Source: Longimicrobiales bacterium (lineage in GTDB: Bacteria > Gemmatimonadota > Gemmatimonadetes > Longimicrobiales > Gaopeijiaceae). From it: DNA of 64,000 nt. Location of the stretch: positions 3,488,001-3,552,000 of the forward strand of contig OZ241869.1 of the NCBI GenBank assembly GCA_965202805.1. The letters run 5' to 3'. The notes under the pieces are model-generated. The model was not told where the DNA came from. It did not search any database and saw only the letters and a program-made list of their open reading frames with translations. Positions within the stretch are counted from its first letter, which is position 1. Each line of letters opens with the position of its first letter. Both the position numbers and the translations under genes were made by a program. Shown in pieces: positions 43,374 to 47,053 of the stretch.

Positions 43374-43416
43374 GCAAAGGGAATTACATACCTAAGTAAC
43401 CACGGAAGGGCTAAAT

Positions 43417-43635
43417 ATGTCGAAGCGTGATATCCCTGCGGGCCACATAGATGTTACGGGAGTATGCGTACCATTTAAACATCACGAAACGGGAGAACCG
43501 GTCCTAACGCCGTTTGAGAGACTCGGTCCAGATATCAGAGCCATTCTTTGTCAGGAGGTTGCCGAGTTCCTGCGCCGAGGTGGAGACCCGGGAATTACGG
43601 CGACAAATAAAATGAGAAAGTTATGCGATCCATGA
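43417..43635 (+). CDS. Hypothetical 72-aa IS passenger protein
   Basis: ATG preceded by GAAGGG; no recognisable domain; its 3' end overlaps the 3' end of the HNH gene. Confidence 0.4.
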   Translation: MSKRDIPAGHIDVTGVCVPFKHHETGEPVLTPFERLGPDIRAILCQEVAEFLRRGGDPGITATNKMRKLCDP

Positions 43636-43867
43636 TGTTCTTTTCCTTATGACACGTGTTGCAAAGAGCTTGCAGGTTGTCCTCATCATCAGTCCCATCA
43701 GCAAATAGTGGCCTGATGTGATCTATCTCGAGCGGAAACTCGCTATTTCGGCGGGGACATCTTTCTCCCTTGCTGTGGTGTGGACATATATACTGGCCCA
43801 TGCATTGACACTGATAGTCGGCACGGATTCGTACAAGCTCCTTCGTGATTTCTGATAGATCAGACAT
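43595..43867 (-). CDS. Small HNH endonuclease
   Basis: RADYQCQC...LEIDHIRPLFADGTDDEDNLQALCNTCHKEK is an HNH motif with Zn-binding cysteines. Confidence 0.88.
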   Translation of the reverse strand: MSDLSEITKELVRIRADYQCQCMGQYICPHHSKGERCPRRNSEFPLEIDHIRPLFADGTDDEDNLQALCNTCHKEKNIMDRITFSFYLSP

Positions 43868-43894
43868 AAGCTCGCCCGTTGGGCTACCAACGGG

Positions 43895-44116
43895 TCACTT
43901 GTTCTCCGCTATACGATGCTGCGTACTCATAGCACGCAGTCCGTTGACGATGACCGCTGCTACAGATCGTGGTGCGCTATCGTCCACCAACCGAGTATAC
44001 GCTAGCGCCGCCAACATGCGCTCGGAGCCGGTGACATTGTATCCGCTCCACGACGCTCCGCTTGCCACGGACGCTAGCGTTTCTTCCAATAGTGTACGGC
44101 CTTTCTGGTTGGCCAT
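43895..44116 (-). CDS. Hypothetical 73-aa IS passenger protein
   Basis: Strong SD (GAGGAG) before ATG; co-oriented directly upstream of the HNH gene. Confidence 0.6.
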   Translation of the reverse strand: MANQKGRTLLEETLASVASGASWSGYNVTGSERMLAALAYTRLVDDSAPRSVAAVIVNGLRAMSTQHRIAENK

Positions 44117-44210
44117 GATTTTTCTCCTCTCTCTTTCCCGGTGTTCCGTATCTAGGGCGCACCAAGACTAGCTGGACAGCCCCCGATGCGCTACCCCCCT
44201 TGCCGACGAC

Positions 44211-44239
44211 TTGACTTCTGCGCGCCCAATGGTTACTAT
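44211..44239 (+). promoter_or_regulatory. Sigma70 promoter of the transposase
   Basis: TTGACT-N17-TACTAT; AAAGGAGG SD before ATG 44273. Confidence 0.75.
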
Positions 44240-44272
44240 TTTTATGTAAACGAATGAACACCGAAAGGAGGC

Positions 44273-45226
44273 ATGGAGACCAGACCGATGGCGAAGAAGG
44301 CACCCGGCAAGCACTTCAGGAAGGGCATAACGCTCGTCGACCTGTTCAGGAGGTTCCCTGACGATGAGGCGGCGGAGCGTTGGTTCGCGGACACGCGATG
44401 GGGCGGAGAGCCCGTGTGCCCGCACTGCGGCTCGATCAACGTCCAGGCAGGCACGACGCACCCTACGATGCCGTACCGCTGCCGTGATTACCGGAAGTTC
44501 TTCTCGGTGAAAACGGGAACCGTGATGCAGTCCTCGAAGCTTGGTCTCCAGAAGTGGGCCATCGCCATCTACCTGCTGGCCACCGGGATCAAGGGCGTGT
44601 CGAGCATGAAGCTCCACCGCGATCTCGGGATCAGCCAGAAGTCGGCGTGGCACCTGCTGCACCGGATACGCGAGTCGTGGGACGACAAGCAGCCGAGGTT
44701 CGCGGGCCCGGTCGAGGTCGATGAGACCTACATCGGCGGCAAGGAGAAGAACAAGCACGCGAAGAAGAAGTTGAGGGCTGGTCGCGGCACGGTCGGAAAG
44801 ACGGCGGTCGTGGGCGCTAAGGACCGTGAGAGCAACCGTGTTGCCGTGCAGGTGATCGAGCACACGGACAAGGCCACCCTACAGGACTTCGTGGACGAGC
44901 ACGCCGATCCAGGGGCGATGATCTACACGGACGGCGCGACAGCGTACGAGGGCCGGGAGCGGCACGAGACGGTTCGGCACAGCGTGGGCGAGTATGTCCG
45001 GGGACAGGCGCACACGAACGGCGTCGAGAGCTTCTGGTCGATGCTGAAGCGCGGATACTACGGCACCTACCACCGCATGAGCCCGAAACACCTCGACCGC
45101 TACGTGAACGAGTTCGCCGGCCGGCACAACATCCGGTGCAAGGACACCATCGAGCAGATGAAGGAAATCGTCCGTGGACTGGACGGGAAGCGGCTGCGCT
45201 ACCGAGAACTCGTGGGTCGACCTTGA
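44273..45226 (+). CDS. IS1595-family DDE transposase
   Basis: Zn ribbon CPHCGS..YRC; HTH KGVSSMKLHRDLGISQKSAW; VEVDETYIGG, IYTDG, HTNGVESFWSMLKR, YVNEF. Confidence 0.97.
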   Translation: METRPMAKKAPGKHFRKGITLVDLFRRFPDDEAAERWFADTRWGGEPVCPHCGSINVQAGTTHPTMPYRCRDYRKFFSVKTGTVMQSSKLGLQKWAIAIYLLATGIKGVSSMKLHRDLGISQKSAWHLLHRIRESWDDKQPRFAGPVEVDETYIGGKEKNKHAKKKLRAGRGTVGKTAVVGAKDRESNRVAVQVIEHTDKATLQDFVDEHADPGAMIYTDGATAYEGRERHETVRHSVGEYVRGQAHTNGVESFWSMLKRGYYGTYHRMSPKHLDRYVNEFAGRHNIRCKDTIEQMKEIVRGLDGKRLRYRELVGRP

Positions 45227-45252
45227 CCGAAGGAAGGCCGAAAGGTTATATT
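45223..45252 (+). promoter_or_regulatory. Putative sigma70 promoter facing the tRNA-like element (sense)
   Basis: TTGACC(45223-28)-N18-TATATT(45247-52), overlapping the transposase stop codon. Confidence 0.55.
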
Positions 45253-45267
45253 GAGGGAATCAGAGCG

Positions 45268-45301
45268 AAAAAGCCCGCCACCGTGGCAGCGGTGACGGGC
45301 T
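45268..45301 (-). terminator. Intrinsic terminator oriented for minus-strand transcription
   Basis: Minus strand AGCCCGTCACCG-CTGCCA-CGGTGGCGGGCT followed by TTTT. Confidence 0.7.
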
Positions 45302-45387: not shown

Positions 45388-45397
45388 CTTACAGAAT

Positions 45398-45426
45398 ATC
45401 ATAACGTTTCTGGAGCGCAAGCGCAA
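45398..45426 (-). promoter_or_regulatory. Putative sigma70 promoter antisense to the tRNA-like element
   Basis: Minus strand TTGCGC(45426-21)-N17-TATGAT(45403-398); predicted start near 45391. Confidence 0.6.
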
Positions 45427-45464
45427 CCCCTGTTAGGGCGTTGCTGAGCACACGTCAAGTTCTT

Positions 45465-46274
45465 CTACCCCAGTGGCTTACAACTTGTCCCGAGCTTCCG
45501 TCCGTCGACTGCGGTCGGGACCAGGGATTCGCCCGCTGCCAGCTTTGCCGCGATCTCGCGGGCGGTGGTTTGGATATCAAGGTACCGCTGTGCGGTGCTT
45601 GGGTGGGTGGCCGTTGCGGTTGCCGCGATGTACGACGGGTTCGCGCGGCCCAAACGCCTCCAGAAGGCAGCAGCACCAGAAACGTCGTATCCAGCGCGCG
45701 CGGCAAAGTACGTGCCTATGTAGTCCGCTTCCGACTCGAATTCCTGTGAGAAAGCATGGAGGCCCGCGTTGGTGAACTCGCTGCCACGATACCCGGTGAC
45801 GGCACCGTACACAGCATCGCCGAGTGCACCAAAGAAGGCATTCCGACGCTTGGCCCCGATGTGGCCGCAGGCCGCGTGTGCAAGCTCGTGGCCTACCACC
45901 ATGGCGATTTCGGCGTCGTTCTCGGCGAAATCGAGTAGCCCGTTCGACACCATGATATCGGTGCCATCCGTTGCGGCGGTGACCTGGGTTGTCGGTAGCC
46001 GCACAAGGCCGTAGGCGCAGGAGACGGTGCCATCCGGTAGGCTGATGATCTTCGTCACACTGCAGAAGTATCCGTTGGCGGCGAGAACGCGCCGACCAAC
46101 GTCCATGAACCGGAGTAGGAGTTTAGGGGACTGGACAGCGTTCGGGCCGCGCTGACGCGCTTGTTCACGCGCTACCGCCGTTGGACCGGAGTAGGGAGCA
46201 CGGGAGGTGGGGGTTGCACACGCGGCTAGCGCAGCAAGGAGGAGGAACAGGAAAAACGCACGGGACCGATTCAT
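45465..46274 (-). CDS. M48-family zinc metallopeptidase lipoprotein (IS passenger)
   Basis: LAAC lipobox; GHELAH, FSQEFESEADYIG, THPS. Confidence 0.88.
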   Translation of the reverse strand: MNRSRAFFLFLLLAALAACATPTSRAPYSGPTAVAREQARQRGPNAVQSPKLLLRFMDVGRRVLAANGYFCSVTKIISLPDGTVSCAYGLVRLPTTQVTAATDGTDIMVSNGLLDFAENDAEIAMVVGHELAHAACGHIGAKRRNAFFGALGDAVYGAVTGYRGSEFTNAGLHAFSQEFESEADYIGTYFAARAGYDVSGAAAFWRRLGRANPSYIAATATATHPSTAQRYLDIQTTAREIAAKLAAGESLVPTAVDGRKLGTSCKPLG

Positions 46275-46329
46275 GACGGGCTTGCCCTCCGTCCGAAGTG
46301 TGAAGACGCGCGGCACAACGGGTGCCGGG

Positions 46330-46479
46330 CCGTTGGCAAGCCTACCGCGCAGGGAAACTGCGGGAAGAACTCCTGCCTGTTCGCCCGGGGCGGGGAGCTA
46401 CCCACGACACCCTTGATGGGCTCTTGTATTCGGCAGGTAACCCGACATGGACTACCTGCGCAGTACGGCTTGCCAACGG
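46330..46479. other. ~150-nt rod-like foldback (candidate structured RNA)
   Basis: CCGTTGGCAAGCCTACCGCGCAGG pairs with CCTGCGCAGTACGGCTTGCCAACGG; nested stems CGGG/CCCG, CCTGCC/GGCAGG and a GAGC..CCCA/TGGGCTC stem. Confidence 0.55.
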
Positions 46480-46569
46480 TGAGGATAACCCGACTTGATC
46501 GGTCACCGCAAGCGATGCTATCTTTGTCTTCGACGCTGATGAAAACCAACTTCGGGAGCGGAGCCGTTC

Positions 46570-46737
46570 ATGTCAGAAAAGCGACCACGGGGGCGTCCCG
46601 TCGAGTACCCTTACCCGGACCCGATCCCGGACACGCCGGAGAACATCGCCAAGGCTATCCTCGCCACACCACCGAAGAAACCCAAGGAATGGCGGTTCGT
46701 GCAGAAGCGCGAGAGACAAACGAAGCAGGATCGCTAA
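46570..46737 (+). CDS. 55-aa basic protein with AT-hook-like motif (IS passenger)
   Basis: Not in the ORF track. MSEKRPRGRPVEYPYPDPIPDTPENIAKAILATPPKKPKEWRFVQKRERQTKQDR; GGAG SD upstream. Confidence 0.7.
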   Translation: MSEKRPRGRPVEYPYPDPIPDTPENIAKAILATPPKKPKEWRFVQKRERQTKQDR

Positions 46738-46739
46738 TA

Positions 46740-46991
46740 GTGGATATTGGCGAAGCCCCGGAGCACGTTGATGAACGTGCCATTTACTCAGTGCCAAGTA
46801 TGTATTCGTTCTTCTGTGGGTGCCAAAACGAGCCCATGTCCAATACCTACATCAAGGATCACACCGCCGTGGTTTGTGGCCGGTGCGGAAAAGCGGAATC
46901 TATCTCGGACATGATTACGTCCTGGAAAATCGACGGAATCAAGATTGACGTCAGAATAAGCCCGAGGATTTTCACACACTTCCGAAAGTAA
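46740..46991 (+). CDS. Small putative Zn-ribbon protein (IS passenger)
   Basis: GTG 2 nt after the previous stop; CGC...CGRCG motifs; 83 aa. Confidence 0.45.
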   Translation: MDIGEAPEHVDERAIYSVPSMYSFFCGCQNEPMSNTYIKDHTAVVCGRCGKAESISDMITSWKIDGIKIDVRISPRIFTHFRK

Positions 46992-47053
46992 GAACAGTGG
47001 GTCAACTTCGTGGTTACTTAGGTATGTAATTCCCATTGCAAAAGGGTGACCAG

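Follow-up and report, generated by a model that had tools for sequence, protein, structure and literature searches.

An enlarged relative of sRNA-Xcc1 in an IS1595-family transposon, a probable antisense switch for its passenger gene

IS1595-family elements with passenger genes are established, and such transporters (tIS), for example MTnSag1/tISSag10 and tISCpe8, have a DDE transposase, inverted repeats about 25 bp long and a duplication of 8 bp (PMC5704250). The antisense RNA c4 blocks translation of ant near the ribosome-binding site and confers heteroimmunity on phages P1 and P7 (PMC12197685), and the CI RNA of P4, a product of primary-transcript processing, pairs with sites on both sides of its own sequence, upstream and downstream (PMC4825925); c4 and c4-a1b1 are listed as separate motifs by Weinberg 2010 (PMC2864571). 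The Rfam family sRNA-Xcc1 (RF02221) was detected as an 88-nucleotide (nt) RNA with mapped ends (PMC2996969), its Xylella copies lie in islands, are transcribed and are packed in vesicles (PMC12189769), and it is reported to precede symE in integron cassettes of Xanthomonas (bioRxiv 2025.06.18.660453) and an ORF6N gene in APSE phages (bioRxiv 2020.03.17.996009); the accessible portions of these four sources propose no c4-like cis targets for it. Here we analyse a transposon of 3,656 bp, bounded by perfect terminal inverted repeats (TIRs) and a target-site duplication (TSD), at positions 43379–47034 of a 64,000-nt stretch of Longimicrobiales DNA (contig OZ241869.1, positions 3,488,001 to 3,552,000; hereafter the window). 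Judging from sequence comparison, we consider it fairly probable that a foldback RNA in this element is a switch of the phage P1 c4 type, reused as a portable expression cassette for the gene behind it.

The RNA, its predicted signals and the gene that follows it are laid out as listed here.

46482–46511, minus strand: predicted promoter of the RNA and the M48 gene (−35 at 46511–46506, 18-bp spacer, −10 at 46487–46482)
46455–46479, minus strand: 5′ leader, the upstream target that masks the antisense segment (together forming the long rod)
46316–46446, minus strand: Xcc1-like RNA core, defined by RF02221 alignment, covariation and a covariance model, with an acceptor-like outer stem carrying an NCC tail and an inner stem with a conserved GAAUA internal loop
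46393–46403, minus strand: extra arm of the core, ending in a UAGCU loop
about 46332–46371, minus strand: variable antisense segment of the core
46279–46286, minus strand: downstream target, 8 nt exactly complementary to the antisense segment, located between the Shine-Dalgarno sequence and the ATG of the M48 gene
45465–46274, minus strand: M48 zinc-peptidase lipoprotein, 269 amino acids (aa), ATG at 46274 (Pfam E 5e-17)
45262–45310, minus strand: probable terminator of the M48 transcript, a strong hairpin with a T-rich tail (z −4.2)

The foldback folds better than 200 of 200 shuffles (z −4.7 on the minus strand and −3.2 on the plus strand), and alignments of the RNA show nearly invariant blocks within non-coding DNA. 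Mismatches on the plus strand turn into G–U pairs on the minus strand, and these recurrent wobbles mark the minus strand as the RNA strand. A core of 20 pairs is 98% paired in 27 sequences, with two-sided changes at five pairs; shuffles equalled the observed covariation values in only 0–2 of 500 cases, and slid partners scored worse. The outer stem is followed by NCC in 22 of 25 sequences, which is only suggestive of RNase P processing, and a promoter-like site stands 29–42 nt upstream of the RNA in 23 of 25, with TTG at −35 in 18 (counted without a shuffle control); the predicted promoter in the window is absent from the list of a stricter scanner.

Rfam returned no family above cut-off for the foldback RNA. 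Aligned to RF02221, the window RNA scored 19.3 bits, with two insertions, and homologues at loci L147 and L171 scored 26.3 and 34.9 bits; the gathering cut-off of 53 bits was not reached, and each of the three aligns across model positions 1–87, with core sequence and stems along the whole model. By alignment, we read the RNA as an enlarged relative of sRNA-Xcc1 that scores below the family cut-off. The two share an outer stem ending in an ACCC-like tail, an AAUACAA..CC / GG.GAAUA inner-stem core, a variable 3′ segment and a location in mobile DNA upstream of a gene. The window RNA differs in its two insertions (33 and 22 nt), which include the arm with the UAGCU loop; RNAs of the window type have a contiguous mask helix of 20–25 bp at the 5′ end, whereas canonical Xcc1 has short distant targets, and they often precede lipoprotein genes rather than antirepressors or symE. 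The UAGCU arm is duplicated in one copy (L168/L179, G129:C1:1044116-1044284) and wholly absent in L001, L185 and L196. Resemblances of the foldback to 6S RNA, retrons, ribozymes and riboswitches were not confirmed: no such Rfam family appeared at E ≤ 5 over the element or at E ≤ 10 over the RNA.

The variable segment, which lies before the 3′ arm, pairs with the 5′ leader of its own copy. Among 47 RNAs, 39 could be parsed and 8 were skipped; the cognate leader was the best partner in 37 of the 39, with a duplex energy of −33.8 kcal/mol against −17.4 kcal/mol for non-cognate combinations. A second complementary site follows the RNA. In the window, it overlaps the last base of the Shine-Dalgarno sequence (46290–46286) and ends 4 nt before the ATG; across 44 members, the window included, an exact complement of at least 7 nt lies within the first 60 nt downstream in 17, compared with 7% of non-cognate pairs; each of two control windows gave 2 of 44. 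Because antisense segment and targets vary in concert, the family is a natural library of potentially orthogonal RNA switches. Two further helices were not used as evidence: only 4 of 25 sequences showed a significant alternative hairpin within the antisense segment, and 8 of 25 a significant one between the 3′ arm and the sequence downstream.

The same layout recurs in canonical Xcc1. A control set of at least 120 loci (L197–L316) was drawn from IMG/VR, and 15 of the 16 tested scored above the Rfam cut-off. In 59 distinct loci, matches to the variable segment lie on both sides of the RNA, upstream and downstream, the cognate site ranking in the top three in 41 and 37 of the 59 for the two targets and in 2 of 59 for the control. 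Proteins encoded downstream belonged to AntA, KilA-N, Bro-N, Rha, P22AR or ORF6N in 22 of 25 scanned, which were chosen from 74 candidates. Canonical leaders share a hairpin followed by a T-run 60–120 nt upstream, beside the upstream target, in front of these antirepressor-type genes; L233 and L242 each hold two Xcc1 cores in tandem.

A purely cis-acting structured leader, which would bind a protein or ligand or stabilise the message and tune genes for exported proteins with no trans step, would suit several of these features: the mask helix is strong and contiguous, the nearly invariant unpaired loops resemble a binding surface, the promoter-like site lies just upstream, and a same-strand open reading frame (ORF) follows the RNA within about 15–300 nt in 40 of 41 instances. 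We nevertheless hold such a leader to be unlikely, because the freely varying paired segment matches a second site at the start region above chance and because the phage relatives have the two-target layout. A metabolite riboswitch fits poorly, as the genes behind the RNA have no common function.

For the genes behind the RNA and for cargo in general, we used 101 loci with related transposases (80 metagenomic, 20 genome regions and 1 Binatia metagenome-assembled genome locus). Inverted repeats and an 8-bp duplication delimited 51 of them, which collapse to 38 distinct sister elements of 1.5–6.4 kb; the other 50 were excluded from per-element counts. In delimited sisters, a lipobox is encoded by 8 of 12 ORFs behind the RNA versus 3 of 95 other cargo ORFs, and one of these three also follows a weak RNA copy. 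Over all RNA instances the figures are 18 of 41 versus 131 of 1,809 heuristic genes in the genome. The lipoprotein contrast is inflated by heuristic gene starts and by control ORFs many of which are probably not genes; lipobox thresholds were chosen after inspection of the data. The proteins are otherwise unrelated, most of them without Pfam family and the others assigned to Big_2, peptidase M8, trypsin-like, TbpB-like, DUF932 or JmjC, and several Binatia copies of the RNA precede proteins without a signal peptide.

The detection of sRNA-Xcc1 as a free RNA and of transcribed, vesicle-packed Xylella copies, described above, together with the 11 variant copies in one genome, would agree with an RNA that acts in trans on host genes, as proposed for sRNA-Xcc1, and whose neighbouring gene is incidental. 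We regard this as very unlikely: an RNA aimed at host genes would have no need of the co-variation seen between the variable segment and its own flanks, and nearly every copy has a same-strand ORF behind it. Our preferred reading is that the foldback RNA regulates the gene that follows it, and the cassette is best explained as a self-contained unit of promoter, structured RNA and passenger gene, here the M48 lipoprotein.

Such a switch would operate in three steps. In the primary transcript the antisense segment would pair with the 5′ leader, a pairing seen in covariation, so that the segment would be masked, the ribosome-binding site free and the gene on. The transcript would then be cleaved, probably by RNase P, at its tRNA-acceptor-like outer stem, which would release a stable RNA of about 130 nt that lacks the mask; c4 and CI RNAs are processed by RNase P. 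Finally, the mature RNA would bind the 5′ leader of new transcripts, the start-region target or both, where complementarity is seen statistically, and translation of the passenger would be turned off once the RNA accumulates. The model predicts that the passenger is expressed in a burst in a cell free of the RNA and repressed in cells that already carry the element, and that each cassette has a specificity of its own.

In its logic, the proposed switch is close to c4 (P1/P7, RF01695) and P4 CI. These RNAs also have an antisense segment inside a structured RNA in the leader of their own target, a complementary site upstream and sequence-specific variation from one element to another; their second complementary site, downstream at the start region, has a possible counterpart here. 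The present case differs in being carried by a DDE transposon and in that the gene presumed to be controlled encodes a surface peptidase, and Rfam C4 (RF01695) gave no match over the element or the RNA, so that the relation is one of analogy and not of membership. IsrK of prophage Gifsy-1 is alike in that a short isoform acts in trans on the leader of the long isoform and alters access to the ribosome-binding site (PMC4825925); it differs in activating translation, and no Rfam IsrK match was found here.

Several results weigh against the c4-like reading of the RNA. No 7-nt downstream match exists in 27 of the 44 members, and by energy the downstream target is weak (residual −2.9, compared with −1.5 and −1.0 in the control windows); those windows are nominally significant themselves, the signal is partly compositional, and the downstream pair of the window itself ranked 18th of 39. 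The downstream pairing is far weaker than the mask helix, so that many members may be locked in the on state. All RF02221 scores are below the family cut-off, the variant loci L185, L191, L195 and L196 gave no Xcc1 match at E ≤ 1, and the core without its leader is not predicted to fold into an Xcc1-like shape (single-sequence prediction, z −0.6). The nearly invariant UAGCU and GAAUA loops are left unexplained by the model, the lipoprotein contrast is inflated as noted, and the sequences are related, so that counts are not independent.

More tentatively, and with less confidence than we place in the cassette itself, we suggest that sRNA-Xcc1 could, instead of targeting the host, form a second and very widespread class of c4-like immunity RNAs, with phage antirepressors under its control, and that IS1595 transposons and other mobile DNA could have adopted a masked, enlarged form as a reprogrammable cassette for surface lipoproteins, expressed on arrival and silenced when resident. 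If so, the many copies (one genome has 11) would be orthogonal to one another, each governing the passenger behind it, and copies of the RNA could pair among themselves through the palindromic AGCU of the added loop. The scheme offers a testable mechanism for an Rfam family that the accessible literature treats as a virulence-linked trans-acting small RNA, and suggests that small transposons bring along a post-transcriptional control of their passengers that is usually associated with phage immunity.

The RNA is found in 16 of the 38 sister elements, 12 of these 16 having been in the training set of the covariance model. On the transposase tree its presence requires 11 gains or losses and clusters no more than shuffled labels (87 of 500), so that it is gained and lost as a module. 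Nor is it confined to IS1595: a transposase was nearby in 3 of 17 and 10 of 20 regions in two sets fetched via the RNA alone. An RNA pattern matched 14 of 301 genomes of the phylum (reversed control, 0), and the covariance model found the RNA in 8 of 101 family genomes and in 11 copies in one Binatia genome. Distant blastn searches did not find the enlarged RNA in PLSDB or INPHARED. In IMG/VR, a first pattern gave 0 matches; a second gave one, inside a polymerase-like ORF of an unrelated virus contig, which was dropped as a chance match; and a third gave 7, of which the 5 distinct ones among the matches listed are short canonical Xcc1.

This scatter on the tree, and the position of the foldback at the edge of exchangeable cargo genes, would also suit a DNA site for recombination or capture of cargo. 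That the foldback works as DNA in place of RNA is, in our view, extremely unlikely, since the G–U-type asymmetry favours one strand, a promoter-like site precedes the foldback and the related Xcc1 is a detected RNA (PMC2996969).

The element that carries the cassette is an IS1595-family transporter, with the transposase, the TIRs of about 25 bp, the 8-bp TSD and the passengers inside the repeats all present. Its ends, its transposase and the gene beyond it are as listed here.

43371–43378, no strand: left TSD copy, 8 bp, identical to 47035–47042
43379–43404, plus strand: left TIR, 26 bp, matching the right end at 26 of 26 positions
44273–45226, plus strand: IS1595-family DDE transposase with an N-terminal zinc ribbon (start at 44273 or 44288; Pfam, NCBIfam)
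47009–47034, minus strand: right TIR, matching the left end
47035–47042, no strand: right TSD copy, 11 bp ahead of the integrase gene start
47054–48220: Arm-domain tyrosine integrase gene, beyond the right TSD

A sequence-only reading of this DNA had described an intact IS1595 cargo transposon, and this is borne out by the ends, by an intact transposase that fills 26% of the element (it had said about a quarter) and by an empty site in four congeneric genomes. The transposase has the Pfam domains DDE_Tnp_IS1595 (PF12762) and zinc ribbon (PF12760) and scores 200 bits against NCBIfam IS1595 (NF033547; cut-off 75); the region upstream of it folds no better than shuffles. The same 8-mer, ATTGCAAA, flanks the element on both sides. 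Among 18 other genomes of the genus, 4 hold 5 homologous empty loci, each with one copy of the 8-mer (1–2 changes) followed directly by the integrase gene, and the duplication therefore arose with the insertion. Recent insertion is thus supported; ongoing activity is not shown by the single copy in the source genome (G000). No joint skipping the whole element was listed in contigs from two DNA runs of one study, possibly the source data. The GC content is 58.6% in the element and 68.4% in the 4.02-Mb genome. Broken or partial IS1595 transposase remnants lie elsewhere in the source genome (G000:C1:1833113-1834040, 495531-495828 and 1708454-1708627).

An exact TIR search of genome contigs returned only one locus, because the repeats diverge, and the sisters were reached via the transposase instead; their ends resemble those of the element (GGGRATTAYA type). 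Many sister TIRs end in an inward-facing TTGACA, a ready-made −35 box, and in L026 and L116 a lipoprotein gene lies close behind such an end. A more distant IS1595 element with the same RNA (38% transposase identity) is present in three copies in G367 (L347–L349), whose differing target duplications are a sign of recent transposition.

Cargo differs among the 38 sisters, and the modules that recur are the foldback RNA, a 55-aa protein (8 of 38) and mutually unrelated tRNA-like genes. Defence cargo occurs in the family: DNA-methylase or restriction genes were found in 10 of 38 sisters in a scan of 54 of 107 predicted cargo ORFs. None of these 10 (L002, L018, L028, L035, L042, L045, L046, L068, L112 and L128) has the RNA cassette, where about 4 would be expected (hypergeometric p about 0.001, by hand; kin are not independent and size limits may explain the exclusion). 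Compared with described tIS, this clade differs in its passengers, which are lipoproteins, restriction-modification genes, tRNA-like genes and a regulatory RNA cassette, in that Pfam scans of its cargo gave no resistance family, and in that the present element has cargo on both flanks of the transposase. The element is best explained as belonging to a large family of IS1595 transporters that acquire and swap passenger cassettes, a clade that moves lipoproteins and restriction-modification genes among uncultured bacteria. A literature search, outside which most subscription papers fell, found no paper on the RNA variant or the transposon clade and none with the c4-like reading; Chen et al. 2011, the main paper on sRNA-Xcc1, may note some of the features described here.

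The remaining protein-coding cargo consists of the following ORFs.

43417–43635, plus strand: 72-aa ORF without family, a doubtful gene, with a partial match beside the HNH homologue in G002
43595–43867, minus strand: stand-alone HNH nuclease, 90 aa, a lineage-specific passenger (Pfam HNH E 9e-11)
43895–44116, minus strand: 73-aa ORF with a purine-rich upstream region; no homologue found
46570–46737, plus strand: 55-aa 'DTPEN' protein with an N-terminal RPRGRP motif, of an IS1595-linked family without Pfam entry
46800–46991, plus strand: 63-aa cysteine-containing ORF, a doubtful gene; no homologue found

All modules named in the sequence-only reading, that is the HNH nuclease, the M48 lipoprotein, four small ORFs, a tRNA-like gene and the foldback, are present. 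The M48 protein has the lipobox LAAC and HExxH at residue 129. Neither it nor the 72-, 73- and 63-aa ORFs had a match in the 101 related loci, where HNH gave eight weak motif-level matches only, and no close homologue of the M48 or the HNH gene was present in any of the 38 distinct sisters. The sole close HNH homologue (81%) lies in the integrase island of a congener, without an IS1595 transposase within 8 kb, and the partial match of the 72-aa ORF, which has no Pfam, NCBIfam or PHROG family above cut-off, adjoins it. A small stable hairpin (43874–43895, z −4.4) stands between the 73-aa ORF and the HNH start. From this search, the HNH–M48 combination is not conserved, and the two are swappable passengers, ordinary cargo. 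The RNA and micro-protein modules do recur across sisters; HNH, with its motif-level matches, and M48 do not.

It had further been suggested that this cargo of nuclease, peptidase, small proteins and RNA modules could be one compact system for defence, addiction or manipulation of the host. Such a system, in which the RNA would serve as guide or antitoxin, could draw on the HNH nuclease, on the report of Xcc1 upstream of symE (bioRxiv 2025.06.18.660453), on the methylase and restriction genes of the sisters and on the likeness that an antisense-gated toxic passenger would bear to a type I toxin–antitoxin pair. The modules, however, assort independently, as the scatter of the RNA on the transposase tree shows. 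HNH and M48 do not recur with the RNA, and the HNH gene lies 2.4 kb from it, across the transposase. The genes behind the RNA encode large, diverse exported proteins and not small toxins, and PADLOC called no system, giving weak single-domain matches for HNH and none for the other five cargo proteins. The proposal thus finds little room, and we give it a very low likelihood; the HNH gene, the tRNA-like gene and the 55-aa protein are best explained as separate passengers. Like IscB/HEARO RNA-guided systems, the element combines an HNH ORF and a structured RNA within one insertion element; it differs in that its HNH protein has only 90 aa, in belonging to IS1595 and not IS200/605, and in that HNH and RNA do not travel together. 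An RNA-guided nuclease (IscB/OMEGA) was rejected on this last ground and on the IscB model score (34 bits, cut-off 175).

Of the four small ORFs, only the 55-aa one has a protein family, hitherto unannotated and linked to IS1595. A profile search returned 812 representatives at E ≤ 0.001, whose conserved pattern is RPRGRP, which we take to be an AT-hook-like motif, followed by P.TPEN. Its occurrences in 8 of 38 sisters comprise 4 at E < 1e-7 and 4 weak ones, and an IS1595 transposase lay within 6 kb in 7 of 8 loci fetched via this protein alone. None of the 100 proteins listed, itself included, has a Pfam family; no Pfam, NCBIfam or PHROG family scored above cut-off, ESM Atlas gave hypothetical clusters only, and viral contigs yielded no confirmed relative. 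The sequence also occurs at the ends of longer ORFs, for example those of RhuM-family proteins, some of which may be read-through artefacts. Most likely, the protein is a small DNA-binding accessory of these transposons.

Behind the transposase lies a tRNA-like gene with its predicted promoter.

45223–45252, plus strand: predicted sigma70-like promoter before the tRNA-like gene (10 of 12 consensus matches)
45314–45387, plus strand: tRNA-like gene with an Arg-like D-loop, a 6-nt anticodon loop and no encoded CCA (Rfam tRNA 56 bits, cut-off 29)

A functional tRNA has a 7-nt anticodon loop, and this one has 6 nt; no sequence difference over the region was listed in the contigs of the two runs mentioned above. 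Its best family matches are ordinary tRNAs (76–81%); no other close relative was found in 200 family genomes, and one pattern found none in IMG/VR. Full-length tRNA-like genes, unrelated in sequence, were detected by ARAGORN under relaxed scoring, and confirmed with Rfam, in 3 of 38 sisters; two more delimited elements, from Binatia, also have them. Such genes lie at L018:3339-3413, L035:5384-5458, L125:3134-3205, L340:7722-7796 and L341:6638-6715. Several have atypical anticodon arms or no variable arm, and some lie just inside the terminal repeat. Roles as decoys or processing signals are guesses.

The insertion point sits among repeated GGGTGA motifs in the upstream region of the Arm-domain integrase gene (window 43300–43378 and 47035–47054), and the element separates that gene by 3.7 kb from a promoter-like stretch at about 43305–43317. 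To judge by this arrangement, the insertion may silence the integrase of the island. Downstream of the integrase gene, an ORF at 48322–50043 (minus strand), whose real start is probably well inside the listed frame, matches the PADLOC candidate PDC-S11 (E 3e-10).

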